Source: a virus. From it: 64,000 nucleotides of DNA. The stretch spans positions 1 to 64,000 of the IMG/VR virus record IMGVR_UViG_3300020220_003756; one strand, given 5' to 3'. The notes beneath the pieces were generated by a model. It saw only the letters and a list, made by a program, of their open reading frames with translations. It ran no database searches and was not told the DNA's origin. Positions within the stretch are counted from its first letter, which is position 1, and every line of letters starts with the position of its first letter. This document shows positions 3,016-62,667 of this stretch, piece after piece. Made by a program: the position numbers and the translations under genes.

Positions 3016-5376
3016 TCACTGTCCTATGTTATACTGCTGATCGACCATGCGCTGATGTAATCTATCAGAGCCTAGCCCTCTGAGAGCGGCAGCGTTATCC
3101 ACGTTTCTCTGCCCTCTGTAAATCTCTCTGCTGGTATAGAACTGGCTGTCTTTCAACTGTGAATTTAGATAGGTATTGAAATCTGCTGGTGCTGCTGCCA
3201 GTGTGCTCATATCTGCTCCGCCTTCCATACCTTCTACAGCACCGCCTCGTCGAACACTAGGTCCGGTTGGTGGCTGTGATCCCGGCACTTCATTGGTTTT
3301 GGTATTATTGTTGGCCTGTAGATTTAGATTATTCTGCGAAGAGGATCTTTCAGATGTTCTAGATTCTTCTGAAGAATCTTGACTCACACCTATAGGACGG
3401 AATCCCTGTAGGGTGATGCCAGTGCCCAAACCTGCCGCTTCGCTCACAGACTGGTCCAACTGTGAAATTTCAACTGCTTCTTGCGCACGAGACTCTGCTA
3501 GTCTAGTAGCAGCAGCGGCTGCCGATCTAGCCACGGCCACGGCCCTAGGATTAGACTGTTTTTTCTCTTCTTCCTTTTTGGTTTCTTGTTTTTCAGCATC
3601 CTTGGCTGCTTCTTTGATAGATTCTTTGGCTGATCCAGTCTGACCGGTTGGGGCAGATATTTCTCCAGTAGTCGATAGTTCTACTCCGCCAGCATCTACC
3701 ACTACTGTAGATTCATTCCTAGTTGGATCTGCTACGATCAGAGAACTGGTCGTCGAAGGCTGTTCTACGACCGCGATCTTGGATTCTACGGCGGTAGAGG
3801 GAGAATTCTGGAGTACGAAGGCAGCGGCATATCCCGGACATTGGCTGTTGTAAAGAGCATTTAGTTGGCATTGTTGATCGAAGTATGCCTGTGCATATCC
3901 CGGACAACTTTCATTGTATAGAGGATTCAGACTGCACTGTTGATTGAAATAAGCCTGTGCATATCCCGGACAACTTTCATTGTATAGAGAATTCAGGCTG
4001 CACTGTTGATTGAAATAAGCCTGCTGATATCCTGGACACGAAGCGCTGTACAGAGTGTTTATAGAACACTGTTGAGTTAAGTATGCTGCGGCATATCCGG
4101 GACAGCCGCTGTCGTACAGAGCACTCGTGCTACATTGTTGGTCGTAATAGGCCTGTGCATATCCGGGACAGGTCTGATCATATAACGGATTAGCAGAACA
4201 TTGTTGTTGAAAGAAAGCTTCTGCATAACCAGTACAGCTAACACTAAACAAAGGATTCATCACGCATTGATCTGGAGTATATCTAGCATTGACATAGATA
4301 TTTTGTATTTCTGCATTGTCCCAAGTTTGACCTTGTATTGAAAAATTTCCTAAACTTAAACTATTTGTACTGTTGGGTAAATTGTATGAATATGATTTAC
4401 TTTGATAGCTATTGATATCATTGTAATCTCTGGTAACAGAATAAATGCTTTGACCCGCACTATCCGTAATATTAACAGTTGTTCTGGCCAAAGGATCTCT
4501 TTTATCTAAACATAATATCAACCAAACAGCACAATACGGATCATTGCTTTTTACATCGTAGCCCCAATTAAATCCATGTACTTTTACTCCCAAGCCACCA
4601 TGTTGTAGTGCTGTGCTTATGGCTATGATTTCATTGAAAGACTGCCCCCAGCTTATCGATGGATTACTGCCCATCAAATTGCCTGATGTAACTATGTCAT
4701 TGAATCCCGGACAACTGCTAGAATACAACGGATTGGCTACACAAGGATCTACAGAGTATTTTAATCTTACATCTACGTCTTTGATCTGCGGACCGTAATA
4801 TCCTGCCCACCAACGATCATCTTTACCGGTTAAACTGAGATTTAAACTACCTAGAGACAAGGGATTATATTGAACTCCAAAATTCTGTACACCACTGACA
4901 TTGGTCCAACCGGCGGTTGTCTGAGGCATGTTGTAATTATAACTGTGTAGTACAGCGCCTGTGTTACTTCTTATATTGATGTTGGCAGATAATGTACCTC
5001 TACTGAAGTCTTGATTGAGGTAATTCCAACTGTAGGTATATCCATCAACTAATACGCCAGAACCTGCGTTAGCAAAGGCAACAGGTATTGACGTAGAATA
5101 AGATACAGTACCTTGATTATAGCCAAACATCCATGTGCCAGTAGCGGGATTAAATCCTGGTACATTGCCACCAGAAGTTCCGCCACCGTTTGAATTAGTA
5201 CCGACAAATGATCCAGACCAGGATGCACCCTGAGCGGCATATCCACCAGGCGGCGGATTAGCATCAGTATAGATTAGATTACCTGTGGTGGGATCTATCT
5301 GCTGTGCGTTAGAATATTGCGAAAAGCAAAGCACCAAGCAAAGCGCCGAAGCCAGTTTTCTTATAGAAGTCATCAC
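3016..5376 (-). CDS. large secreted protein with duplicated beta-rich domain and Cys repeats
   Basis: signal peptide; two similar domains each ending in DxCxxNPLxSxSCxG; 7 tandem 22-aa repeats. Confidence 0.85.
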   Translation of the reverse strand: MMTSIRKLASALCLVLCFSQYSNAQQIDPTTGNLIYTDANPPPGGYAAQGASWSGSFVGTNSNGGGTSGGNVPGFNPATGTWMFGYNQGTVSYSTSIPVAFANAGSGVLVDGYTYSWNYLNQDFSRGTLSANINIRSNTGAVLHSYNYNMPQTTAGWTNVSGVQNFGVQYNPLSLGSLNLSLTGKDDRWWAGYYGPQIKDVDVRLKYSVDPCVANPLYSSSCPGFNDIVTSGNLMGSNPSISWGQSFNEIIAISTALQHGGLGVKVHGFNWGYDVKSNDPYCAVWLILCLDKRDPLARTTVNITDSAGQSIYSVTRDYNDINSYQSKSYSYNLPNSTNSLSLGNFSIQGQTWDNAEIQNIYVNARYTPDQCVMNPLFSVSCTGYAEAFFQQQCSANPLYDQTCPGYAQAYYDQQCSTSALYDSGCPGYAAAYLTQQCSINTLYSASCPGYQQAYFNQQCSLNSLYNESCPGYAQAYFNQQCSLNPLYNESCPGYAQAYFDQQCQLNALYNSQCPGYAAAFVLQNSPSTAVESKIAVVEQPSTTSSLIVADPTRNESTVVVDAGGVELSTTGEISAPTGQTGSAKESIKEAAKDAEKQETKKEEEKKQSNPRAVAVARSAAAAATRLAESRAQEAVEISQLDQSVSEAAGLGTGITLQGFRPIGVSQDSSEESRTSERSSSQNNLNLQANNNTKTNEVPGSQPPTGPSVRRGGAVEGMEGGADMSTLAAAPADFNTYLNSQLKDSQFYTSREIYRGQRNVDNAAALRGLGSDRLHQRMVDQQYNIGQ
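3811..4272 (-). repeat. 7 x 66-bp coding tandem repeat (QQCxxNxLYxxxCPGYxxAYxx)
   Basis: GCATATCCCGGACA recurs at 3827, 3893, 3959 with period 66. Confidence 0.92.
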
Positions 5377-9972: not shown

Positions 9973-11896
<1,924 letters not shown>

Positions 11897-11903
11897 TCGT
11901 ATT

Positions 11904-11923
11904 TTCTCCTTATAAAGTAAGAT
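11904..11923 (-). promoter_or_regulatory. ROSE-like RNA thermometer hairpin (groES)
   Basis: ATCTTACTTTATAAGGAGAA. Confidence 0.7.
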
Positions 11924-11952
11924 TAACGAGGGACCCGATGGTGTCCCTATTA

Positions 11953-13845
11953 TTAATTCTTGGTTTCTGTGTATGTAGCATCGACTACATTATCATCCTG
12001 TGATTCCGGATTGGGTTTTTCTGCTTGTTCTTTAGCAGTACGTTTTTCCAAAAGAATCTTCATCGCAGGATAAACTTTTTCTAGTTCAGATTTAATCTTA
12101 TCTGTGTCATCCCCTTTGACTGCTTGTTCAACTGAGGCAACAGCAGATTCGATTTCTGATTTTTCTGAGTCTGTGAGTGTGTCTTTAAATTCCTCTACGT
12201 CACGTTTTACTTCATATACAGTAGATTCTGCTTGATTCCGTGCTTCTATTAATTCTCTGGCTTTTTTGTCTGCATCAGCATTGGCTTCGGCTTCTTTGAT
12301 CATTTTTTCGATTTCTTCTTTGCTAAGACCAGAGTCAGACTTAATCGTGATCTTATTTTCTTTTCCTGTGCCTTTGTCTTTGGCAGAGATGTGCATGATG
12401 CCATTAGCATCGATGTCGAAAGTAACTTCGATCTGTGGCATACCTCTACGTGCCGGTGCGATTCCTTCGAGGTTGAATTCGCCTAGCATTTTGTTATGTT
12501 GAACTAACTCTCTTTCTCCCTGGAATACCTTGATAGTTACAGCAGGTTGATTGTCTTCTGCGGTGGAAAATGTCTGCTGCCCCTTAGTAGGAATAGTGGT
12601 ATTTTTTTGGATGATCTTGGCCATCACACCGCCCAATGTCTCGATACCGAGGCTCAGCGGAGTGACATCTAGCAGAAGAACATCTGTTCGATCACCGCCT
12701 AGCACAGCACCTTGTACTGCGGCACCAACTGCTACCGCTTCGTCGGGGTTAACGTCTTTACGAGGAGCCTTGCCGAACAATTTCTCGACTTCTTCCTGGA
12801 CCTTAGGCATACGGGTCTGACCGCCAACGAGGATGACTTCATCGATGTCTGCAGCCGTAACAGCAGCATCCTTCATAGCGATGCGGCAGGGTTCTAGGCT
12901 GCGTTGGATAAGATCCTCAACTAGGCTTTCTAGTTTAGACCTAGAAATCTTAACTACTAGATGTTTCGGACCAGACGCATCTGCGGTTACATAAGGTAAG
13001 TTAACTTCTGTCTGAGCGCTGTTCGACAGTTCGATCTTGGCTTTTTCTGCAGCATCTTTAAGACGTTGCAATGCTAGGACGTCGTTCTTGAGATCTACAC
13101 CGTTTTCTTTCTTAAACTCATCGACCAAGAAATCCATGATACGTTGATCAAAGTCTTCGCCTCCCAGGAATGTATCACCATTAGTCGACAACACTTCGAT
13201 CTGCTTGTCACCGTCGACATTTGCGATTTCAATGATCGAAACGTCAAATGTACCGCCTCCTAGATCATACACGGCGATTTTTCGATCTTTCTTATCAGTT
13301 TTATCAACACCATAAGCCAGCGCGGCCGCTGTAGGTTCGTTGATGATACGCAGAACTTCTAGACCAGCGATCTGTCCAGCATCTTTGGTTGCCTGTCTTT
13401 GACTGTCATTGAAGTAAGCAGGAACTGTGATAACTGCTTTGGTAACAGTTTCGCCTAGATAATCTTCTGCGGTCTTCTTCATCTTGCGAAGGACTTCAGC
13501 AGAGATTTGGGGCGGTGCTAGTTCTTTGCCCTGTGCTCGAACCCATGCATCTCCGTTTTTAGATTCCATAATTTCGTATGGCATTAAATCGATATCTTTT
13601 TGTACAGCCTGTTCTTTGAACTTGCGACCGATCAACCGTTTGGCTGCATAAATGGTGTTTTTGGGATTAGTTACGGCCTGTCTTTTAGCGCTGGCTCCGA
13701 CCAGGATTTCGTTTTCTGTGTAGGCAACGATGCTAGGTGTAGTGCGAGCACCTTCTGAATTTTCGATTACTTTGGATTTTCCTGCCTCGATGATGGCCAC
13801 GCACGAATTGGTGGTTCCGAGGTCAATACCGATGATCTTAGACAT
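11953..13845 (-). CDS. dnaK: chaperone DnaK (Hsp70)
   Basis: [25 protein letters not shown]. Confidence 0.99.
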
Positions 13846-13849
13846 ACAT

Positions 13850-13869
13850 ATCTCCTTATAAAGTAAGAT
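13850..13869 (-). promoter_or_regulatory. ROSE-like RNA thermometer hairpin (dnaK)
   Basis: ATCTTACTTTATAAGGAGAT. Confidence 0.7.
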
Positions 13870-13950
13870 CTATTTTTTAGGCTCTATGCCCTGAAAATTG
13901 CCCTAATAGTGGTACAATTTACGATTTTATTTATCTCTGAGATTATACAG

Positions 13951-14052
13951 CTAGATAAAAATATTTACGATACCTACGATGTAGATCACAGTGATCACAG
14001 CCTGGACGATGAATAGGCTATGTTTCCGCCAAATTACAGCCTGCATGACCCA
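13951..14052 (-). pseudogene. 3' fragment paralogous to the 14270..14512 membrane protein
   Basis: WVMQAVIWRKHSLFIVQAVITVIY vs WAIQAIMWRKWSLLTVQTVITVIY; homology starts exactly at the 27-bp repeat. Confidence 0.7.
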
Positions 14053-14254
14053 GCTGACGATCTCTGTCAGCGTATTCTCGATCTCGGTTGGCTCTCCACC
14101 ATTCAAGATACAGATTCCAATCGCCGCCAAACTTTTCACGCTTGACAATTTCTGTGATTTCGATGCAGGGCATGATTTCGGTATTGGGCAGCAGGGCTCT
14201 TGATGCTGCCCAATCACAATGCCAAAAAATTACTAGAACAGCAGCCAAATTCAT
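14018..14254 (-). CDS. hypothetical protein, C-terminus probably altered at the repeat junction
   Basis: 78 aa; EYADRDRQL is encoded by the 27-bp repeat. Confidence 0.5.
   Translation of the reverse strand: MNLAAVLVIFWHCDWAASRALLPNTEIMPCIEITEIVKREKFGGDWNLYLEWWRANRDREYADRDRQLGHAGCNLAET
14052..14078. repeat. 27-bp direct repeat, copy 1
   Basis: AGCTGACGATCTCTGTCAGCGTATTCT, identical to 17579-17605; contains GCTGAC-N7-GTCAGC. Confidence 0.95.
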
Positions 14255-14269
14255 GACTGTTAATATCCT

Positions 14270-14512
14270 TCATGTTAATATACTCTTGATCAAGGGCGGC
14301 AAATAGATCACTGTGATCACTGTCTGTACAGTGAGAAGACTCCACTTGCGCCACATGATGGCCTGTATGGCCCAACCTAGATTGGAAACAAACAGGAACC
14401 ATATATTTAGTGGATAGATATTCATAGAAGTCAAAACCGCACCTACTATTAGGATTGCGGTTATTGACCACTCAAACCAGAATTGCCAGGGTTTTCTAAT
14501 CCATTCGATCAC
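14270..14512 (-). CDS. small three-TM membrane protein
   Basis: 80 aa, hydrophobic, ATGA-coupled to the VUT gene. Confidence 0.75.
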   Translation of the reverse strand: MIEWIRKPWQFWFEWSITAILIVGAVLTSMNIYPLNIWFLFVSNLGWAIQAIMWRKWSLLTVQTVITVIYLPPLIKSILT

Positions 14513-15210
14513 TTCATGGCCCTAGCTTCTTCACGCCATGGTGCAAGACTGACCAAAGGTGTCAGTGCCAAGATCACTCCTAGTTTGAACAGGGTGCTGC
14601 CGCTCACGATCCTAGCGATGGCCTTGTTGAGATCCATGGCATCACCACCCAACAGCGGAGGAATAAACACAAAGGCAAACAGTACAAATAAAACAGCATC
14701 CACTGGCAAGCTGACTAGGTTGCTGACAAATGTTCTTGCCCACGAACCCCAGTCACGTTCCCACAGCACTTGATACACCCAGGTGTTGACCCACTGGCTG
14801 ACCACAGTGGCGATTTCTGAACCGATCACTATGCCCAGGCTCATCTTCCACACAGCATCAAAGTTCACACTGGGTCTAAATGCCGGAGCAGGAATAAAGG
14901 TCATGGCATACATGAATGCTGCCACAGCAAGATTCAAGACCACACCTATTAGAATCACTCGTTGCACCACAGCAGCACCGGCCAGTTTGTGCAACATGTC
15001 TCTGACCACAAACACCACAGCAAATAGCATGGCGCCGGCAGGTGTCACTACCCAACCAAAATCCAGGAACTTGGCAGCAGCAAAGTCTGCCACGGTCATG
15101 GCCATGATTAGAGTGGCACTCAAACCAATGATCCAGTACAGTGTTCGGTTGTCCAGTTCGATCAAAGGTCGATCAAAGAACTTATCGTTCAAGTTAGTTA
15201 CTACACTCAT
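14509..15210 (-). CDS. VUT/YhhQ-family (queuosine precursor) transporter
   Basis: multi-TM; AAKF..FG..VTPAG...RD, VSQWVN, SNLVS..VD..LF pattern. Confidence 0.8.
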   Translation of the reverse strand: MSVVTNLNDKFFDRPLIELDNRTLYWIIGLSATLIMAMTVADFAAAKFLDFGWVVTPAGAMLFAVVFVVRDMLHKLAGAAVVQRVILIGVVLNLAVAAFMYAMTFIPAPAFRPSVNFDAVWKMSLGIVIGSEIATVVSQWVNTWVYQVLWERDWGSWARTFVSNLVSLPVDAVLFVLFAFVFIPPLLGGDAMDLNKAIARIVSGSTLFKLGVILALTPLVSLAPWREEARAMK

Positions 15211-15231
15211 TTCAGTCTCCTCTTTAAAAAA

Positions 15232-15885
15232 TTAAAATTTTGCATGATCACTCTGTCTTTCTTGGTAGTGATCACAGATGTCTGTGAACATGCATTGATC
15301 GCATTTGGGTGATCTGGCACGGCAGATATACTTGCCGTGATCTATCAACCATTCATGAGCACCCCAGCGATACTGATCAGGGGTATCCTGCTCTAATGTT
15401 TCTGCGGTCTTGTGTTCTGCTTTTGTATTTGCTATGCCCAGTCTGTTGCTGATACGATGCACATGGGTGTCCACGGCGATAGCAGGTTCATTGAACACAA
15501 AACGCATCATGATGTCTGTGCTTTTGCGACCCACGCCTGCCAACTGCATCAACTGCTTTCTATCATTGGGCACTGTGCCGGCATGACGATCCAACAGTTG
15601 CTGACTCATCAACTTCAGATTCTTGGCCTTGTTGTTGTACATACCAGCAGGCCGTATTAATTGTTTTAATTTGTCTATGTCCAGGGATAGGATTTCTTCC
15701 GGAGTTTCAGCATGAGCGAATAAGTTAGCGCAGGCTTCAGCGGTGCGTTCATCTTTAGTCTGGGCACTCAGTGTCACACCCACCAGACTCTTGAACGCAT
15801 TGTTGTAGATTTTTTCCCGCGGCGGATTATTTGGCACAGGATTTTGTGCGTGAAATCGTTCGTAGACTGTGACTATTTTAGACAT
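15232..15885 (-). CDS. nth: endonuclease III (HhH-GPD glycosylase, 4Fe-4S)
   Basis: LSAQT, LAGVGRKS, VDTHVHR, C-x6-C-x2-C-x5-C. Confidence 0.95.
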   Translation of the reverse strand: MSKIVTVYERFHAQNPVPNNPPREKIYNNAFKSLVGVTLSAQTKDERTAEACANLFAHAETPEEILSLDIDKLKQLIRPAGMYNNKAKNLKLMSQQLLDRHAGTVPNDRKQLMQLAGVGRKSTDIMMRFVFNEPAIAVDTHVHRISNRLGIANTKAEHKTAETLEQDTPDQYRWGAHEWLIDHGKYICRARSPKCDQCMFTDICDHYQERQSDHAKF

Positions 15886-16351
15886 TGGCCGCTTGTAGTT
15901 TCTTTTTATTGGCTACTGCCCAGTTGCCTCTCAGTGCAAAATAAAGTCCACCAATCCATAGGCTGAAGTGCAAGTAGTCAGAGAGAATAAAAGCCCATAG
16001 ACTTTCAGGCTTGAGCACTACCCAGATCACTCCGGTCATCACGCAACACATGACCAGGCCGCAGAATCTAGTGAGTGCATCTCCCAGTTCGGCAACATAG
16101 GGCAAGTCCCGAATCTTAGCCACAGTGGCTAATCCTCCCGCCAGTAGACCAACACCGGCTAGTATTTCACCAAAGACCACGAACCACCATACCAAGGCCG
16201 GCAGACCAAATGCTGCTCCACCCGCAGGATCAAATGGCATCTTGGCCAAGCCCTGTGTGATAAACACCACGGCCAAAGGTATTCGCAACAGCAGGTTGCT
16301 CCAGTCAAAGTCTGGCAATGTGTGCCAATAATTTTTTAGAACCAGTTTCAT
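15878..16351 (-). CDS. DoxX-family membrane protein
   Basis: LLRIPLAVVFITQGLAK...GE; start revised to MKLVL (AAGGA SD). Confidence 0.8.
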   Translation of the reverse strand: MKLVLKNYWHTLPDFDWSNLLLRIPLAVVFITQGLAKMPFDPAGGAAFGLPALVWWFVVFGEILAGVGLLAGGLATVAKIRDLPYVAELGDALTRFCGLVMCCVMTGVIWVVLKPESLWAFILSDYLHFSLWIGGLYFALRGNWAVANKKKLQAANV

Positions 16352-16364
16352 AATATGTTTCCTT

Positions 16365-16889
16365 TCAAATGCGACGGCAAATAGAGACCGCACCGCGCGA
16401 TCCCAGGTCAATCAACTTTACCCATAATTTCAATGCAGGGTTGATGGATCTAACACGCGACCCAGCATCATGCTTGTGATGCACTTCGTCGGCCTGGCAT
16501 TTTTTAAGTACGACTACCAGATCGTTGTGTTCGGGATAGGAAGATAACTGATCAATCTGTTGTTGATAATGATGGTCCACAAAAGTTTCCACAGCTTGTA
16601 TGGTAGCATACACTGTATTGCGTCCAAATAGAGCTGGCACAGCACCAGTGAGCCAACCTGCTATTCGCCAAGGAATCTGCAGACGACTTTGCTGTGACAC
16701 ATGTACCAGGGACTCCATCATTCTTAAATGCTGTCGTTCCACAGCTCCATGTGCATCAGCAAACTCCAACAATTCGGGGTCTTCCCGCCACAGGGCCACT
16801 GCTTTTATACCCCGATAGATTTCTACCGCTCCAACTTCACCTGCATGATCAGAGCGTAATTCCTGATTGATGTAGTTACTGATTGACAC
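16365..16889 (-). CDS. coq7: demethoxyubiquinone hydroxylase (Coq7/Clk-1 di-iron family)
   Basis: LRSDHAGExGA..IY, ExxH, VETFVDHHY, DExHH. Confidence 0.9.
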   Translation of the reverse strand: MSISNYINQELRSDHAGEVGAVEIYRGIKAVALWREDPELLEFADAHGAVERQHLRMMESLVHVSQQSRLQIPWRIAGWLTGAVPALFGRNTVYATIQAVETFVDHHYQQQIDQLSSYPEHNDLVVVLKKCQADEVHHKHDAGSRVRSINPALKLWVKLIDLGSRGAVSICRRI

Positions 16890-16890
16890 T

Positions 16891-17187
16891 TTACTTCAGT
16901 GTAGCAGTATAGGCCGCGATGTTTTTAATATCGGCTGGAGATAGTTGTGCAGCAAAGCCCCACATCAACTGACTCTGTGCGCCAATCTGTTGCTTGTTTT
17001 TGTAGGCAGTGAGTTTCCTCTCAATGTCTGCCGCTGGCTGGCCGGCCAACTTGGGACCTGCACCACCTTGACCTTGTGCGCCGTGACAGGCCACACAGGT
17101 AGCGTACTTGACTTTGCCTTGGGCCGCATCTTGTGCCATGGCTGGTACGCTTAACGCGACCAAACTTGCAAAAATAAATGATTTCAT
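16891..17187 (-). CDS. periplasmic monoheme cytochrome c (c553/c4-like)
   Basis: signal peptide, CVACH, PKLAGQ, distal Met. Confidence 0.93.
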   Translation of the reverse strand: MKSFIFASLVALSVPAMAQDAAQGKVKYATCVACHGAQGQGGAGPKLAGQPAADIERKLTAYKNKQQIGAQSQLMWGFAAQLSPADIKNIAAYTATLK

Positions 17188-17197
17188 TTTGTTTCCT

Positions 17198-17371
17198 TTA
17201 AACAATTAAATTTACTAACATTAATAATGATAACACAAACACTAGAGTTATTACAAGCCCCGCAACAACCAATACCACAGGATTAAGTTGTTCAGCGTCC
17301 TGTTCATATTCGGATCTTTTTCTGATGCCCAGAAAAGACCACATCACTGCCCGAATTGTTCTTAACCACAT
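17198..17371 (-). CDS. DUF2970-like small membrane protein (not in ORF track)
   Basis: MWLRTIRAVMWSFLGIRKRSEYEQDAEQLNPVVLVVAG... Confidence 0.75.
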   Translation of the reverse strand: MWLRTIRAVMWSFLGIRKRSEYEQDAEQLNPVVLVVAGLVITLVFVLSLLMLVNLIV

Positions 17372-17378
17372 ATTGGAA

Positions 17379-17555
17379 TCACTGCTCGCCCCAACTGACT
17401 CTCAACCAAACACGTTCATGCACATAAAAGATTATGGTATGTATGATGGCCAGAGCTATGGCCCCTTGCCAGCCTGCAAAAGGTATGGTTATTAACATGG
17501 CGATCAGTCTCCAACTGACTGCTCTAGCCCAGGTGCGTGTTTTGGTTTCTGTCAT
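17379..17555 (-). CDS. DUF2061-like small membrane protein (not in ORF track)
   Basis: MTETKTRTWARAVSWR...FYVHERVWLRVSWG. Confidence 0.8.
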   Translation of the reverse strand: MTETKTRTWARAVSWRLIAMLITIPFAGWQGAIALAIIHTIIFYVHERVWLRVSWGEQ

Positions 17556-17578
17556 TTGCTTTTGTTTTCAAACTGTGT

Positions 17579-17605
17579 AGCTGACGATCTCTGTCAGCGT
17601 ATTCT
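17579..17605. repeat. 27-bp direct repeat, copy 2
   Basis: identical to 14052-14078; TAAATA immediately upstream (17615-17620). Confidence 0.95.
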
Positions 17606-17617
17606 GGATCACAGTAT

Positions 17618-17980
17618 TTAGATACTCGCTGCCTTCTCGGCTCGTTCTTCATCACTCATCTCAGAATCTCTCTGGGCACGATCCGATTGTCGCAGTTGAT
17701 CATATTTTGGTCGATCGGGATACTGTTTCTGCACAGTCTTGATCACCAACCAAGTTATGAACGCCATGCTGACGATGGCCATGTGTCCAAACACATTGTA
17801 TCCCAGATACCACATCTCGCCCGCATATAATGAAAACGCCAGGGCCCAAAAACAGGCCAGCATGATGCTGGCGATGTATTTGATCTGCATGGGAGCATTT
17901 CTCATACCATTGAAGTTGGGATCCAGCAATTGATAGAAAGTCCTAAACAGTAATCGCAAAAATTTGTATAGTCCGTACAT
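17618..17980 (-). CDS. two-TM membrane protein, copy A
   Basis: near-identical to 45794..46156. Confidence 0.85.
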   Translation of the reverse strand: MYGLYKFLRLLFRTFYQLLDPNFNGMRNAPMQIKYIASIMLACFWALAFSLYAGEMWYLGYNVFGHMAIVSMAFITWLVIKTVQKQYPDRPKYDQLRQSDRAQRDSEMSDEERAEKAASI

Positions 17981-17990
17981 GATTATCCTC

Positions 17991-18125
17991 TCATTGACAC
18001 ACAGAATCGTAATACTTGCAGAAGAAAAAATGCCATGCGAGATGTTGGTCCCTCACAGACCATAGGCCTGCTGTGATCAGGGCAACGATGCCACATATTG
18101 CGGCGAATATTATGTAAACCTTCAT
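17991..18125 (-). CDS. 44 aa membrane peptide, copy A (not in ORF track)
   Basis: MKVYIIFAAICGIVALITAGLWSVRDQHLAWHFFFCKYYDSVCQ; conserved paralog at 46167..46301; GAGGAG SD. Confidence 0.8.
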   Translation of the reverse strand: MKVYIIFAAICGIVALITAGLWSVRDQHLAWHFFFCKYYDSVCQ

Positions 18126-19180
18126 TTTATCTCCTCTAGAGTGAACTTCTCCTTCAATATCTGACAGGCACGATTCAATGCGTGAACACGATCACTTCTG
18201 CTTTCCTTCGTGATGATTACATCAGCCGCGCAATGACAAATGTTTTTATTACAAATTATCTTTTCTTTAGGCCAGTCAAATCCTGTAACTATATTTCCTA
18301 GATGACCGCCAACTTCACAATTTGCACGTTGCACTCTTCCGTCATGTAAAACAAATAAACTTTCTAATCCTATAGAGCATTCCCATCCGAAAAAATTATT
18401 TGATTTAGTTTTTTCTAGATCCGATTGTATGTTTAAAGAAAAAAATTCTTGAGATCCATCATCATATAACACATTTGATTTTGTTTTGTTCATTCGATGA
18501 TTAGTTAATTTTTTTAGTTTCGGATCTCCGAAGACTATAGGCGTGTTTTTTAAAAAATCTAATTGTTCGTCAGTGTAAGATGCATCAAAATAATTAATTC
18601 CCGTACCAAAGTCAGGTAATATTCTTACCACTTCGATAGTAAAAGGTTCAGATGCTAACAAAGCCTTTTCATACATTCTAACGCATCTATCCCAATTTCT
18701 GGGATGCATCATTATTCTTAATGTAACATAGGATTTGTGAGATAATTTTGATAACTTATCAATAAATTCGTCCTCTTCCTCTTCTGATATTACAAATTCT
18801 GAATGATAGCTTACGCTTATAGAACAAAATTTATAAGCTATATCTTTCCAATAATCCCAAGAACGTACAAGATTTGTAGTCACATGCACAGTTCCGCCTT
18901 TATCATAAATGGTGTCAACTAAATCTTTAAAAAAAGGACTTACTGTAGGTTCTCCGCCTGAAAGACTGCAGTGGACATAAGAGAATTTTTCAAAGCACCG
19001 ATCTAAAAAAGGCTTTACATGTTTCCAATCGTAGTGATGATTTTTGCCGCCATGCACAATTTCAGGACAATAACTACAATGATAGGTACAAATATTATTT
19101 AAAAGCCAGGTAAGAAAAAGTCCAGGAGAAGTTTTTTCTATCTTTATTATTTTTTTACCGTTATAGATTATTGGATTCAT
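18122..19180 (-). CDS. radical SAM protein with SPASM/twitch-like C-terminus
   Basis: CTYHCSYC, GGEP, C-terminal Cys cluster; visibly AT-rich. Confidence 0.9.
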   Translation of the reverse strand: MNPIIYNGKKIIKIEKTSPGLFLTWLLNNICTYHCSYCPEIVHGGKNHHYDWKHVKPFLDRCFEKFSYVHCSLSGGEPTVSPFFKDLVDTIYDKGGTVHVTTNLVRSWDYWKDIAYKFCSISVSYHSEFVISEEEEDEFIDKLSKLSHKSYVTLRIMMHPRNWDRCVRMYEKALLASEPFTIEVVRILPDFGTGINYFDASYTDEQLDFLKNTPIVFGDPKLKKLTNHRMNKTKSNVLYDDGSQEFFSLNIQSDLEKTKSNNFFGWECSIGLESLFVLHDGRVQRANCEVGGHLGNIVTGFDWPKEKIICNKNICHCAADVIITKESRSDRVHALNRACQILKEKFTLEEIK

Positions 19181-19197
19181 AATTTAACCTAATATAA

Positions 19198-19222
19198 TCT
19201 AGTTCTTGAATTCGTTCGTTCA
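19198..19222 (-). repeat. 25-bp orphan copy of an MNERIQEL gene start
   Basis: TCTAGTTCTTGAATTCGTTCGTTCA identical to 45536-45560. Confidence 0.85.
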
Positions 19223-19272
19223 CGGTTGTTTTCCTTTCTTTTATTTTAAAAATACATCGTTGATTGCTTAAT

Positions 19273-19860
19273 TTATCTCTGTTTTGCCAGTGGTGTGAAC
19301 AATTTTCCATCCATGCTGCTTGCAGATCTCAATTTCTTAAACACATTTTGTACACCCACTGCCTGATTCCAAGCATCTTCTAGCGCATGATGTTTCAGCA
19401 CAGGTGGCCGCTGCGGATCTATACCGAGATCGAACAATGTGCGTGTATCCCTGACTTCCCAAAAACTCCAAGGGATGGCTTTCCCGATCTTGCGGAAAAG
19501 GTGTTCGCAGATTATGACATCAAATCCTGCCCCATGGCTCCAAACCCGTTTCGCTCCCCAGCAGAATTTGTATAGTTGATTCATAGCATCAACGATATTG
19601 ATTCTGCCTTCAGGATCGAATGCTTCTTCCTGTGCTGCCTTACTTTGATTTGCCCACCAGTCTAGGGTAGATTGGCTTACGGTGCAACCTATGCGATCAC
19701 AACTATCTAAGTCTACTTTAACATAAAACTTTTCACAAGATGGTTCAGATATATCGTCACCGAATGGATCAAATTTGACTGCGCCAATCGTTAAAATAGT
19801 TGCTGTGGGGAGAACATCTAAGGTCTCCATGTCGATCATGATATCAGTAAGTGCGGTCAT
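19273..19860 (-). CDS. DEDDh 3'-5' exonuclease (Rv2179c-like)
   Basis: MIDMET, FD, RDTRT, HHALEDA. Confidence 0.9.
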   Translation of the reverse strand: MTALTDIMIDMETLDVLPTATILTIGAVKFDPFGDDISEPSCEKFYVKVDLDSCDRIGCTVSQSTLDWWANQSKAAQEEAFDPEGRINIVDAMNQLYKFCWGAKRVWSHGAGFDVIICEHLFRKIGKAIPWSFWEVRDTRTLFDLGIDPQRPPVLKHHALEDAWNQAVGVQNVFKKLRSASSMDGKLFTPLAKQR

Positions 19861-19895: not shown

Positions 19896-20920
19896 ATATT
19901 ATTTTTTACAAATACATCATTGATTTGTCGATTGACCCGGATAAATGTAGTGCATTTCGATAGCTGTTTTAGGGTCGGGGCGCCTACATAAGTACAGGCA
20001 CTGCGGAGTCCCCCCAGCAGATCTAGCACTGTGTTTTTTACTAGACCTTTGTATTTTACTTCTACTGTGCGTCCTTCTGAACTTCTATATTCAGCAACGC
20101 CGCCGCTATGCTTATTCATTGCTGTGTCCGAACTCATGCCGTAAAAGGTAACTAGGCCGTCCTTGACTTCGCCACCGCCTTCGTCGTGGCCGGCTAACAT
20201 CCCACCCAGCATGACGAAGTCTGCGCCTGCGCCAAATGCCTTAGCCACATCGCCTGGGCAAGTGCAGCCACCATCAGCAACGATATGGGCGCCGAGCCCA
20301 TGGGCCGCATCACTGCACTCAATGATCGCAGAAAGTTGCGGGTAGCCAACTCCAGTCTGTATCCTAGTCGTGCATACCGATCCCGGTCCGATTCCAACTT
20401 TGACGATGTCGGCTCCCCGTAAAATAAGTTCTTGGGTCATATCAGCAGTGACCACATTACCGGCGATGATGGTTTTGTCTGGCCAGGCGTCACGGACGTC
20501 TGCGACATAATCACCGAATGTTTCGCTGTAGCCGTTGGCTACGTCGATGCAGACGAAACGGATCTCTGGATAGGCATTGATTATTCGGCTCAGTCTTTGG
20601 AAATCTCGTTCGCCAGTGCCGGTGCTGACAGCGAAACAATTGCCGCTGTACTCAGTGGCTAAGTCAAACAGGTCCTCTTCGTCGTAAGACTTTACCAAAC
20701 AGGTAAACATACTATGCCCGGAAAGAGTCTTAGCCATTTCGATCGTACCTACTCCATCCATGTTGGCAGCCATTATGGGAACGCCCGTCCATTCTTGACT
20801 GCTGTGACGGAATTTATAAGTTCTGGAAAGTTCTACTTCTTTTCGGCTGCTTAAAGTAGAACGTTTGGGACGGATCAACACATCACGAAAGTCTAATTTG
20901 ACTTCGTCTTCGATACGCAT
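19892..20920 (-). CDS. guaC: GMP reductase
   Basis: [41 protein letters not shown]. Confidence 0.97.
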
Positions 20921-45108: not shown

Positions 45109-45166
45109 TTTACATGTCTCACTTGATCTAGATTGAATTTCTTATGTTTATATACTGTAACATATT
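45105..45166 (-). pseudogene. displaced original 3' end of the dnaE-like gene
   Basis: encodes YVTVYKHKKFNLDQVRHVK*; 45127-45166 matches 46311-46350 at 35/40 nt. Confidence 0.85.
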
Positions 45167-45337: not shown

Positions 45338-45561
45338 TATCCACATTCTCCAACTCCGAAATGTTCTTTAATCAAACTTGCCGCAAGGTCTTCATCAAAA
45401 GGAAAAGGTTCACCTTTCCATTTCTGTAAAACTTCGGCACATTCCCGCACAATCAACTCAGCGAACTTATGAGTATCAAAGTGTAATTGTCCGTCTACTA
45501 GAGCACCCTCTACACGATGGCTCCAGCATTGTTTTTCTAGTTCTTGAATTCGTTCGTTCAT
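45337..45561 (-). CDS. small phage protein, MNERI...KFAELIVREC...IKEHFGV type
   Basis: recognisable repeated small-protein pattern of large phages. Confidence 0.75.
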   Translation of the reverse strand: MNERIQELEKQCWSHRVEGALVDGQLHFDTHKFAELIVRECAEVLQKWKGEPFPFDEDLAASLIKEHFGVGECG

Positions 45562-45794
45562 GCGCTACTCCAGTCATTATTGGTAGTCTTTGGTTTGTTT
45601 TCTTCTTTTACTTGATCGATAAGTTTCTGTATAGGAAGTTCATGTGCAGGTTTGGGTTGTTTTCGATGTTGTATTTTTTTGTATATCTCTACAGGCACAG
45701 TCCATATGAGTATATAAATCAATAGACCCGTGCCTACAATCGGTCCCCAGACAAACATAAAAATCCATTTGAATATGTCAATTGCTTTGTCCAT
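45558..45794 (-). CDS. small membrane protein
   Basis: 78 aa, TM helix, coupled on both sides. Confidence 0.65.
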   Translation of the reverse strand: MDKAIDIFKWIFMFVWGPIVGTGLLIYILIWTVPVEIYKKIQHRKQPKPAHELPIQKLIDQVKEENKPKTTNNDWSSA

Positions 45795-46156
45795 CAGATA
45801 TTCTTAGCCAGTTTTTGTCGCTGTTCATCACTCATCTCGAAATCTCTTTGAGCACGATCCGGTTGACGCAGTTGATCATATTTTGGCCGTTCTGGATACT
45901 GTTTCTGCACAGTCTTGATCACCAACCAAGTTATGAACGCCATGCTGACGATGGCCATGTGTCCAAACACATTGTAGCCTAGATACCACATTTCACCAGC
46001 ATACAAGGTAAATGCCAGGGCCCAAAAACATGCTAGCATGATGCTGGCGATGTATTTGATCTGCATGGGAGCATTTTTCAAACCATTGAAGTTGGGATCC
46101 AACAGTTGCCAAAAGGTCCTAAACAGTAAGCGTAAAAATTTGTATAATCCGTACAT
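45794..46156 (-). CDS. two-TM membrane protein, copy B
   Basis: paralog of 17618..17980. Confidence 0.85.
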   Translation of the reverse strand: MYGLYKFLRLLFRTFWQLLDPNFNGLKNAPMQIKYIASIMLACFWALAFTLYAGEMWYLGYNVFGHMAIVSMAFITWLVIKTVQKQYPERPKYDQLRQPDRAQRDFEMSDEQRQKLAKNI

Positions 46157-46166
46157 GATTATCCTT

Positions 46167-46301
46167 TCAGTGACATTCGGAATCGTAATACTGGCAGAAC
46201 CAAAAATGCCATGCGAGATGTTGGTCCCTCACGGACCACAGTCCTGCTATGATAAGTGCAGTGATGCCGCATATGATGGCGGCGGCTATATAACCCCTCA
46301 T
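46167..46301 (-). CDS. 44 aa membrane peptide, copy B (not in ORF track)
   Basis: MRGYIAAAIICGITALIIAGLWSVRDQHLAWHFWFCQYYDSECH. Confidence 0.8.
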   Translation of the reverse strand: MRGYIAAAIICGITALIIAGLWSVRDQHLAWHFWFCQYYDSECH

Positions 46302-47965
46302 TTAATCTCCTCTAGAGTGAACTTCTTGTGCTTGTATACTGTAACATATTCCGAATTGTTTTTGTAGCCCAATCTGCCCGATCCCCATAAGATTGGATGA
46401 TCGTGGAATGAAATGGCATGAGGAACCACTACATCTAGATAACGACCGTTGCCCGTGCCCAGTGTGACGAATGTGATGTACTCTCGAGGTTTGGATTTGA
46501 ACACGCGATAGTTAGCGACCAATCCACAGAACTCTACAGATCCTGGTTTTCTTATCTCTTGGCACACAGGTATGAATCTCTCTGATCGCCAGCGGCCAGT
46601 CTTCATGAGATCGTCTACCTCACCGCCTTCACCTATGGCAGGCACAGCGCCCGCCAGTTTGGCTTCTTGATGATAGACCCAGCGAGCATATGATCCTTGG
46701 CAGTGTTTCAGTGCTGCCTGCCAGAACCGTTCCGGATTATGTGCCTTCTGATAGGCCAAGGCCCAGATCAATCTACCTAGATTTATCGCATGGGCACGAC
46801 ATAGGCCAAAATGGCTTAACTCTCGCAGGGCGGCAAACACATCGTCCTTGCGGGGATGATTACCTACCAACTGCATGAACTCAAACATCTTTTCTTCGTT
46901 CTTCTTGGCGAATGCTCTGCGCCACATGTCTGCGGTGTATTGGTCGCAGCCTAGGATCTCCGATATTAGTTCTATGGCATCATCCTCGAACACGATAGTT
47001 TCATCGAAGTTGTCTTTGGACCAGTCCTGGAAGAACGATGCTTTCCGGCGGCCCATGGTAGCCACAGGGCGTATCAGTGCTGTGCCTAGTACACAGTCGG
47101 CACGACTCTTAGGACGGATAGCACGGAACAGTCTCTTCATCGCCGGCGACTCTGCCTGTGTAACTCCTAGAACATCTCCACGGCTCAGCAATTCGGCAGT
47201 GGCTTCATCCTCTTCTGGATAGTCTAATAAGTCACGCTGTTCTATTTCCCACAGTTGGCTCAGTCCGCGATTGGCCAGTATATCTATCTTAAAATGCTCT
47301 AGGTCTTCTATCTCATATTTGTCTAGCAGGATTTGATTATCGCCGTTGATTAGACTCTTAGGTACTGAACGATCAAATATCAGTATGCCGCCACAGTGTT
47401 TTGATATGCAGCGTTTCTTGCCTAAAAGTTTATTGGCCAGACGCTGTGCTTCCTCTACGAAACTCTTGTCAATGACGTTTTCTAGTTTGAAGTTGCGTTT
47501 CAGCGTGCCTTTGGCACCATAGCGTTTGGCTGCTTCTCTCAGTGCAGATTTTTCTTTATAGGTCACATAGTTTGACACACGAGCACTCTGTCCTGGCCAG
47601 TGTTTGAATATGCGATTCATCACTGTTTCCTGCTGCCAATGTGGGAAATCTAAGTCGATGTCGGGTAGGTCATCGCGCTTGGGATTCATGAAGCGTGATA
47701 AGGGTATATGTTCTTTAATTGGATCTACATCAGATATATCTAACAGCCAACAGATCAAACTGCTGCCTGCAGATCCTCTGGTTATGTGGGGGATATCTCT
47801 AGTGAGATTCAGTATCTCTACTACTCGTAGAAAGTGTTTGGCGAAACCCAATCGTGCTATGATTTCTAGTTCTTCTGCTAGCCTATCTGCGTATGCTTGG
47901 CCTTGGGGTACGTCTCTGACAAACTTGCCTACCAGTGTTTCTAGTTCTTTGTATCTTGCTTCCAT
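46298..47965 (-). CDS. dnaE: compact family C DNA polymerase (DnaE-like, no PHP domain)
   Basis: RGSAGSSL, DLPDIDLDF, KHCGG, KIDIL, RAHA; only 555 aa. Confidence 0.88.
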   Translation of the reverse strand: MEARYKELETLVGKFVRDVPQGQAYADRLAEELEIIARLGFAKHFLRVVEILNLTRDIPHITRGSAGSSLICWLLDISDVDPIKEHIPLSRFMNPKRDDLPDIDLDFPHWQQETVMNRIFKHWPGQSARVSNYVTYKEKSALREAAKRYGAKGTLKRNFKLENVIDKSFVEEAQRLANKLLGKKRCISKHCGGILIFDRSVPKSLINGDNQILLDKYEIEDLEHFKIDILANRGLSQLWEIEQRDLLDYPEEDEATAELLSRGDVLGVTQAESPAMKRLFRAIRPKSRADCVLGTALIRPVATMGRRKASFFQDWSKDNFDETIVFEDDAIELISEILGCDQYTADMWRRAFAKKNEEKMFEFMQLVGNHPRKDDVFAALRELSHFGLCRAHAINLGRLIWALAYQKAHNPERFWQAALKHCQGSYARWVYHQEAKLAGAVPAIGEGGEVDDLMKTGRWRSERFIPVCQEIRKPGSVEFCGLVANYRVFKSKPREYITFVTLGTGNGRYLDVVVPHAISFHDHPILWGSGRLGYKNNSEYVTVYKHKKFTLEEIK

Positions 47966-62157: not shown

Positions 62158-62667
62158 ATGACAACTTTAGTTCTCAATGCGGATGCCCAACCCACTAGCC
62201 TGCTGCCGTTGTCCACGGTAGATTGGCAGGAAGCCATCCGCTATCTGGTTTTAGATAAAGTCACAGTTATGGCCTGGTACGAAGACTGGGTCGTTCATAG
62301 TGCCTCTTGGAGCACTAGGGTTCCTGCTGTGATCATGCTCAAGGAATACCAGAAGCCCAAAAATTATGCCCGATTAAGCAAACGAAATGTGTTTCTGCGA
62401 GACTTATATAAATGCCAATACTGCGGCGTAAACTGCAATGGCGCAGATGCTACTCTGGATCATGTCCTGCCTTTAAGTCGGGGTGGTAAAAATTCTTGGC
62501 TCAATCTCACCACTGCCTGCAAACCCTGCAACTATCGCAAGGCCAATCAAGTCAAGATGAAGCCTAAAACTGCACCCCACAAACCCGATTTTTGGGAATT
62601 GGCAGAGAAGCGGCGCCAGTTAGGTTTTCAATATGCCCATCCTAGTTGGGGTGACTTCTTAGGTTGA
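62158..62667 (+). CDS. HNH endonuclease
   Basis: RD...CQYCG, TLDHVLP..GG...W.N....C..CN..K. Confidence 0.93.
   Translation: MTTLVLNADAQPTSLLPLSTVDWQEAIRYLVLDKVTVMAWYEDWVVHSASWSTRVPAVIMLKEYQKPKNYARLSKRNVFLRDLYKCQYCGVNCNGADATLDHVLPLSRGGKNSWLNLTTACKPCNYRKANQVKMKPKTAPHKPDFWELAEKRRQLGFQYAHPSWGDFLG

Follow-up and report, generated by a model that had tools for sequence, protein, structure and literature searches.

In a 64,000-nucleotide stretch of viral DNA (the window; positions 1 to 64,000 of IMG/VR record IMGVR_UViG_3300020220_003756), two perfect 27-bp direct repeats bracket a block of genes upstream of dnaK. The sequence-only reading of this DNA had taken the repeats for the borders of a gene cassette that was integrated as a circle by a site-specific recombinase. 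Comparison with related phage contigs points to a different origin: the 27 bp are, judged by these relatives, the 3′ coding end of a small gene, orf78, and we consider it probable (roughly 0.7) that the present arrangement is a scar, left in a variable island upstream of dnaK by the serial replacement of modules through general, short-homology or illegitimate recombination. According to the list of open reading frames (ORFs) and to Pfam, every gene around the repeats lies on the minus strand. In the direction of transcription, an exonuclease-like 195-aa ORF (19273-19860) is followed by a low-GC 352-aa ORF, orf120, the right repeat, DUF2061, DUF2970, cytochrome c, COQ7, DoxX, endonuclease III, Vut_1, a DUF6552-like gene, orf78, the left repeat, a DUF6552 remnant, dnaK, groES and groEL.

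The 27-mer AGCTGACGATCTCTGTCAGCGTATTCT has exactly two matches on the plus strand of the window, at 14052-14078 and 17579-17605, which gives a spacing of 3527 bp. No third copy was found in the window when up to 3 mismatches were tolerated, and two matches occurred in 0 of 100 shuffles, so that the repeat pair described earlier is real and not due to chance. The 6-bp inverted repeat with a 7-bp spacer (GCTGAC-GATCTCT-GTCAGC) that had been reported inside each copy is likewise present; the pattern GCTGAC-N7-GTCAGC, with at most 1 mismatch, matches only the two repeat sites in the window (0.11 matches expected). Beyond the 27-mer the likeness of the two copies continues for 10 nt with 7 matches, making a 37-nt family at 92% identity, one of only six direct-repeat families in the whole window (14-nt seed, 20-nt minimum length). 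Further copies elsewhere, which the sequence-only reading had proposed to look for, did not turn up: the 19-nt palindrome core, with up to 2 mismatches, has just these two copies across the whole 73,530-bp record, and exact-pattern scans of IMG/VR with a 25-mer and a 23-mer gave 0 matches. Among JGI metagenome contigs the inner 23-mer is found in four, two of which belong to this genome (L120 and L122) and two of which carry the native joint of orf78 and DUF2061 (L119 and L121). Because there are two copies here, none in IMG/VR, and all four JGI contigs are explained, the 27-mer is not a repeat family.

The native context of the repeat is found in L119 and L121, which are 99.87% identical to each other over 3811 nt and which hold in one run Vut_1, DUF6552 (98% aa identity), orf78 (89% aa) and DUF2061 (97% aa), with the TGA stop of orf78 overlapping the GTG start of DUF2061. 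The earlier observation that circularising at the repeats rejoins the ends of the block was to the point in this respect, since orf78 runs straight into DUF2061 in both contigs and the two ends were therefore once joined. The L119-type orf78 protein has 76 aa and the C-terminus REYADRDRRLQQFENKSK*. The orf78 of the window differs from it at 16 of 199 nt, distributed as 5, 2 and 9 over the three codon positions; this corresponds to 7 synonymous and 5 non-synonymous codons in the orf78 frame and to 2/11 and 0/12 in the other two frames. A collection of 5.8 billion proteins contains three orf78 clusters of 76-80 aa, all ending in ...RDRRLQQFENK[SN]K; a protein query in IMG/VR returned 21 pattern-matching stretches, with 0 confirmed relatives. 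By its appearance orf78 looks like a real gene. Because of the native run of orf78 into DUF2061, the codon pattern of the differences and the tail common to the three clusters, the 27-bp repeat is, on this comparative evidence, the 3′ coding end of orf78. The joints of orf78 with the repeat and of the repeat with DUF2061 are native, and the joints on the two outer sides, J1 at the right copy and J2 at the left copy, are non-native.

J1 lies at the upstream edge of the right repeat, 12 nt past the orf120 stop. In comparison to L119 and L121 the right copy has lost 1 nt, which shifts its frame. It had been stated that the reading frame of orf78 would continue across a circle junction into the start region of DUF2061. 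The frame of the right copy does read EYADRDRQLHSLKTKANDRNQNTHLG, but this is not the native reading, as the relatives end in ...RRLQQFENKSK and the right copy carries the 1-nt deletion. The palindrome itself differs between the phages: its 3′ arm is GTCAGC in the window and GTCGGT in L119 and L121, both window copies read CAG and CTA at places that are CGG and TTA in L119 and L121, and at the protein level RQL in the window stands against RRL in L119 and in the three database proteins.

The breakpoints are fixed by a sister genome, L112, which is identical to the window in the exonuclease-like protein and in DnaK (100% aa each) and whose flanks match at 96.5% over 2771 nt and 98.2% over 5060 nt. 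L112 has the gene order exo, Vut_1, an intact 79-aa DUF6552 and dnaK, and it contains no copy of the 27-bp repeat or its core. Window positions 14055-19229 (5175 bp) stand in for positions 9997-10834 (838 bp) of L112. The upstream breakpoint, 19230, is in the leader just before the Vut_1 start, 1.6 kb past the right repeat, and the downstream breakpoint, 14054, coincides with the outer edge of the left repeat, so only one of the two replacement edges touches a repeat. This joint, J2, shows a microhomology of 3 nt, the final coding-strand bases GCT being common to the repeat and to L112, and it cuts DUF6552 after codon 46 of 79. The truncated paralog that had been noticed outside the left repeat thus exists and is this DUF6552 remnant (13951-14052), whose 33 codons show 1 difference from the intact L112 gene. 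Sharp breakpoints, microhomology inside a resident gene and truncated gene remnants left behind are all found here. The sister comparison, proposed earlier as a check, gives a difference of 5175 bp versus 838 bp and not of 3527 bp; the sisters do not differ by the repeat-bounded block as a unit, and the view of the 3.5-kb block as the integrating unit does not hold.

The block is mosaic, its parts being met separately and with other neighbours in L003, L088, L119/L121 and L004-L007. In L003, endonuclease III comes straight after orf120. In L088, the run COQ7-DoxX-endonuclease III matches the window at 91% nt identity and the match ends at 15248. In L119, unrelated genes follow DUF2061. A captured host operon was also considered and was discarded, as 0 of 78 bacterial COQ7 loci had a second cassette gene within 5 kb. 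The cargo of COQ7, cytochrome c, DoxX, endonuclease III and a Vut_1 transporter was built gene by gene within phages and not taken over as a host operon.

From the observed native adjacency, the two non-native joints, the sister breakpoints and the mosaicism of the block, the arrangement can be read as follows. The boundary of orf78 and DUF2061 is now present twice, each time as one half. The left copy represents the upstream half, orf78 followed by the repeat, fused at J2 to the cut resident DUF6552, and the right copy the downstream half, the repeat followed by DUF2061, fused at J1 to the end of orf120. On this reading the 27 nt are simply the overlap of J1 and J2, which fall 7 nt before and 1 nt after the palindrome. 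Both joints were probably made by the general recombination and repair of the phage during serial module replacement, and selection for one intact copy per gene may have placed them at the same gene boundary. Because such selection would hold both there, the closeness of J1 and J2 is no strong coincidence. The two copies could also recombine with each other at present, at low frequency, and loop out 3.5 kb. Tandem duplication with two deletions, two separate acquisitions and a circle intermediate each need the same two illegitimate joints. The features discussed here are collected in Table 1.

Table 1. Positions of the repeats, scars and genes in the window, listed with the principal elements first
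Feature	Position	Strand	Remarks
Left repeat	14052..14078	(-)	Codons EYADRDRQL of orf78, whose native 3′ coding end it is; J2 at the outer edge
Right repeat	17579..17605	(-)	Left over from the 3′ end of orf78, non-coding; DUF2061 start codon 23 nt downstream
orf78	14018..14254	(-)	Small gene of a rare family; native C-terminal tail swapped for 10 out-of-frame codons from the DUF6552 remnant
Replacement segment	14055..19229	(-)	5175 bp for 838 bp of L112 (Vut_1 and first 46 DUF6552 codons)
DUF6552 remnant (resident gene)	13951..14054	(-)	Last 33 codons and stop; from comparison with L112
DUF6552-like 80-aa membrane protein, incoming allele	14270..14512	(-)	PF20189, E 2.8e-5, under the curated cut-off; 98% aa to the L121 copy
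Vut_1 (YhhQ-like) transporter, incoming allele	14509..15210	(-)	Pfam; DNA 79% identical to the resident allele of L112
Endonuclease III (HhH-GPD)	15232..15885	(-)	Pfam; directly after orf120 in L003, after DoxX in L088
DoxX family membrane protein	15878..16351	(-)	Pfam; L088 copy 97% aa
COQ7-like di-iron hydroxylase	16365..16889	(-)	Pfam; L088 copy 98% aa
Small cytochrome c	16891..17205	(-)	Pfam
DUF2970 protein	17198..17371	(-)	Pfam
DUF2061-like 58-aa membrane protein	17379..17555	(-)	Pfam E 0.0013, under the curated cut-off; adjoins orf78 in L119/L121
orf120 membrane protein	17618..17980	(-)	In 5 relatives with different next genes in each; paralog at 45794-46156
352-aa ORF, GC 0.31-0.37	18122..19180	(-)	ORF list; also in L120; radical SAM is the label of the sequence-only reading
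Gene-start scar	19198..19222	(-)	25-nt exact copy of 45536-45560, the start of the gene at 45560 (MNERIQEL...)

The reading from which the study started takes the two 27-bp repeats for attL and attR, flanking a cassette that entered as a circle when a tyrosine recombinase, or another site-specific one, acted on the 6-7-6 core. It draws on the perfect direct repeats holding an inverted repeat with a 7-bp spacer, and on the record being rated by CheckV as only 21% complete, so that a recombinase could be encoded elsewhere in the genome. Searches with PF00589 and PF00239, however, gave 0 hits in the 73.5-kb record (21% complete) and likewise none in any of five relatives' records, which include one of 353 kb (98% complete) and one of 383 kb (100% complete). 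Y1 transposase and GIY-YIG families gave no hit in the record, and its single HNH gene (62158-62667) is 45 kb away from the repeats. Moreover, the arms have just 6 bp, the 3′ arm is unconserved in L119 and L121, the site is situated within coding sequence, the core is not reused beyond the two copies discussed above, and the difference from L112 does not fit a repeat-bounded block. A Campbell-type step of repeat against repeat would still need J1 and J2 and would add a further step, and the empty site that it requires was not found. There is hence no evidence for a dedicated integration site, the recombinase-site interpretation of the 27-bp repeat is not supported, and we regard it as very improbable.

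Direct evidence on junctions was sought in the Logan contigs of four (X1, X2, X19 and X20) of the 20 lake metagenome runs in which the stretch occurs; contigs drop rare variants, and these data are silent on rare excision products. Neither a circle junction nor an empty site with the variants of the window was seen in these contigs, and a joint expected from deletion between the repeats was found neither there nor among the four JGI contigs with the 23-mer. One circle-like joint exists: a 261-nt contig of X20 joins 17423-17576 to 14056-14155 with 7 other letters in between. These 7 letters equal the reverse complement of the L119 letters at that place, and the contig has 8 differences from the window over 154 nt, with L119 itself having 9. 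L119 is a linear 10.8-kb phage contig in which DUF2061 is followed by about 10 kb of unrelated phage genes. The X20 joint is therefore of the L119 type by its letters and its differences, and it was rejected as an excised circle of the block. The joint of the L112 type, from the Vut_1 start to 19230, is present in contigs of X2 and X19, where by eye the intervening letters equal the reverse complement of the Vut_1 start of L112. As a side observation, contigs over 13600-19400 indicate that island variants of the window, L112 and L119 types are found together in the same lake metagenomes. A joint in X1 from 13875 to 19349, with a shorter side of 30 letters, is a weak hint of an island-less form.

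The same contigs bear on whether the arrangement exists at all, since a chimeric contig could have passed twice through the shared 27-mer; the sequence-only reading had itself named misassembly as an outcome that would count against it. Several related strains are present in the same runs, and both copies are spanned by no contig besides the record of the window. Logan contigs are built with 31-letter words, which are longer than the 27-bp repeat. Each repeat context is bridged by independent Logan contigs with 0 differences, the left by X1 record 1 over 13846-14562 and the right by X19 record 14 and X20 record 30 over 17423-17675, and by JGI contigs, L122 matching window positions 11419-15879 at 99.6% and L120 positions 20662-16212 at 99.8%. 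The depth over the block is even in all four runs, with 30 of 30 bins covered in each, and the link of DoxX and endonuclease III that lies between L120 and L122 is present in L088, too. An assembly artefact is thus scarcely credible.

A circular or concatemeric (longer-than-unit) 3.5-kb intermediate, closed at the native joint of orf78 and DUF2061 and re-inserted by general homologous or illegitimate recombination without a dedicated enzyme, has more in its favour. The order of the window is a circular permutation of the native adjacency of orf78 and DUF2061, and the two copies are identical and have derived bases in common. Furthermore, for T4-type phages such circles, termed PeSL mini-circles, are described as being formed through short repeats and packaged, with less than 50 bp of homology said to be sufficient (PMC2839356). 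Against this stand the lack of a junction with the window's own variants, the X20 joint being of the L119 type, and of an empty site, in the contigs named above. For a crossover of repeat against repeat, 27 nt of orf78 would already have to be present in the target, with orf120 on one side and the cut DUF6552 on the other, and because of this the circle route needs the two illegitimate joints plus one more step. We consider such an intermediate unlikely, if conceivable.

Several points weigh against serial module replacement as we propose it. The copies are identical at 27 of 27 positions, and a comparison of the flanks with L119 gives a difference of 0% next to orf78 and of about 6-8% next to DUF2061. 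Because the copies are identical and share the derived CAG and CTA, a duplication within a single lineage, or gene conversion, is favoured over two unrelated acquisitions, and the same features fit a circular or tandem intermediate. The block being a circular permutation of the order in the relatives would be explained by a circle in one step. The presence of two joints around one palindrome could also mean that breaks are favoured at the hairpin, which would then be more than a bystander. In addition, the record is 21% complete and a recombinase may lie in the remainder, and contigs were used and not raw reads, so rare excision products would go unseen. Taken a step further, the hairpin at the orf78 end might be a preferred site of breakage or strand switching, and the 3.5-kb cassette from DUF2061 through orf78 might circulate among co-occurring freshwater jumbo phages as a circle or longer-than-unit copy that re-enters at the hairpin. 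This would account for the circularly permuted order, for the identity of the copies and the derived bases that they have in common, and for the way in which three boundaries cluster at the palindrome, and it would make the cassette a coding-sequence analogue of the PeSL mini-circles; we hold it to be a rather improbable scenario.

The clustering also raises the question whether the repeat is a cis element held identical by selection, either as an RNA hairpin that controls the expression of DUF2061 or orf78 or as the target of a sequence-specific or structure-specific nuclease that makes a break hotspot. The two joints and the boundary of the L119-identical tract are all no more than a few bases away from the palindrome, the two stem bases that are altered in L119 would, by our reading, still pair as G-U in RNA, and one HNH endonuclease gene is present in the record. 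RNA folding of both copies and of L119, on the other hand, was no better than that of shuffles (z -1.5, -0.9 and -1.0), and the hairpin is unused in the minimum-energy fold of L119. No promoter-like or terminator-like site was found at 14052-14078 or 17579-17605, no other copy is present in the window, and the HNH gene is distant. Little credence can be given to a cis-acting role. Module replacement at a gene boundary is thus the explanation that we prefer.

The surroundings of the block suit this explanation. A DnaK query against IMG/VR gave more than 560 related stretches, on contigs as long as 383 kb, so that this is a large family of uncultured jumbo phages, to which the source of the window belongs as a freshwater member. 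GenBank phages have no DNA match to 13900-17700; their DnaK proteins match with at most 68% identity, and some of these matches are suspected to be host DNA filed as phage. For the best 80 of the related stretches, the gap that separates dnaK from the closest conserved gene upstream is at most 150 nt at 38 loci, 151-500 nt at 25 and more than 500 nt (up to 6.8 kb) at 6, with no value for 11. In the window this gap is 5.4 kb. The closest relatives have the order S21, GMP reductase, exonuclease, dnaK, and their DNA homology upstream of dnaK ends at window positions 13935-13944. Because of the spread of gaps over the 80 loci and the gap of 5.4 kb here, the repeats sit within a variable island and not in a stable backbone.

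Further duplicated gene ends and starts were observed in and around the island. The gene-start scar at 19198-19222 (Table 1), which has GTG where the full gene has ATG, lies between the downstream leader of the exonuclease-like ORF and the 352-aa ORF, and it looks like the cast-off gene start of an earlier occupant of the island, situated at its upstream edge. A duplication of about 510 bp (17640-18150 and 45818-46326, 88-90% identical) takes in orf120, which is intact in both copies, together with a small ORF upstream of it and the final codons of the gene before. At 45127-45166 and 46311-46350 a 40-nt gene-end motif recurs (88%), the same letters occur in an X20 contig that diverges at 18150, and this gene end may be a recurrent joint in the phage. 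A 27-nt AT-rich motif has two copies at 85% identity. The copies lie on either side of the exonuclease-like ORF: the downstream one (19239-19265) is in the leader found ahead of Vut_1 in L112, and the upstream one (19899-19925) is in the 3′ end of the GMP reductase gene. The motif could represent a promoter or one more duplicated gene end; as a dispersed family of the PeSL kind it was dismissed, because no further copy appears at up to 3 mismatches.

Some observations concern single genes. Vut_1 followed by a small DUF6552-like membrane gene is found in 20 of 30 phage loci (L089-L118), often with overlapping stop and start, and forms a conserved pair. The COQ7 protein is closest to Comamonadaceae (Hydrogenophaga and Limnohabitans; 54-56% aa), a weak hint at the host group. 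After DUF2061, positions 520-10826 of L119 are occupied by several accessory genes in a row and by the beginning of a protein that exceeds 1500 aa; labelled by eye only, the accessory genes include a KdsA-like aldolase, two paralogous 230-aa genes, and superoxide-dismutase-like and IscA-like genes, and some genes of this run have homologs near dnaK in more distant relatives. The HNH gene on the plus strand encodes 169 aa (PF01844, E 1.4e-14), is one of only three plus-strand ORFs of at least 100 aa from 58.5 kb to the end of the window, and may be a free-standing homing endonuclease. Six tandem 66-nt repeats at 3848-4243, 61-85% identical to the first, are part of a 786-aa ORF (3016-5376) for a repeat-domain protein.

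The locus provides a base-level view of how an island of accessory genes is built in an uncultured freshwater jumbo phage. A near-identical sister and a second relative fix every joint, and the picture that they give is one of serial module replacement at gene boundaries without an integrase. It also calls for caution, as direct repeats that are perfect and contain a dyad need not be att sites and can be what remains of gene ends. Scars of duplicated gene ends are, as a kind, already known.

Core sites of tyrosine recombinases, such as the lambda att core, loxP, dif and integron attC, consist of an inverted repeat around a spacer with arms of about 9-13 bp. The repeats described here resemble them in the inverted repeat around a 7-bp spacer and in the direct copies at both ends of the block; they differ in the 6-bp arms, one of which is unconserved, in being coding sequence and in that neither a recombinase nor an empty site was found. 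Closer is the resemblance to the mosaic joints of phages, where illegitimate or homology-facilitated recombination leaves duplicated gene ends beside inserted genes. As in such scars, one breakpoint relative to the sister genome falls within sequence that both share, the other interrupts a resident gene at a microhomology of 3 nt, and there are cast-off gene ends and no mobility gene. What departs from the usual scar is that the duplicated piece is the overlap of the two halves of a former gene boundary, hence the circularly permuted look.

Unconventional circularizable structures, as described in PMC7843796, are segments bracketed by direct repeats and without a recombinase gene. The block has this form and could loop out. 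Their direct repeats are long and their circle is demonstrated, whereas the repeat here has 27 bp and no circle was seen in the contigs. PeSL shuffling in T4-type phages likewise concerns a variable region of a large lytic-type phage, in which genes are gained, lost or replaced at short stem-loop repeats without a dedicated recombinase and with circles as a possible intermediate (Arbiol et al., 2010; PMC2839356). No PeSL-like mini-circle was seen in the contigs of the four runs, which cannot show rare forms. PeSLs are intergenic promoter-plus-terminator cassettes dispersed in many copies, whereas there are two copies here, without a promoter-like or terminator-like site and with the left one coding; the location in a variable island, in turn, does fit what is described for the T4-type phages.

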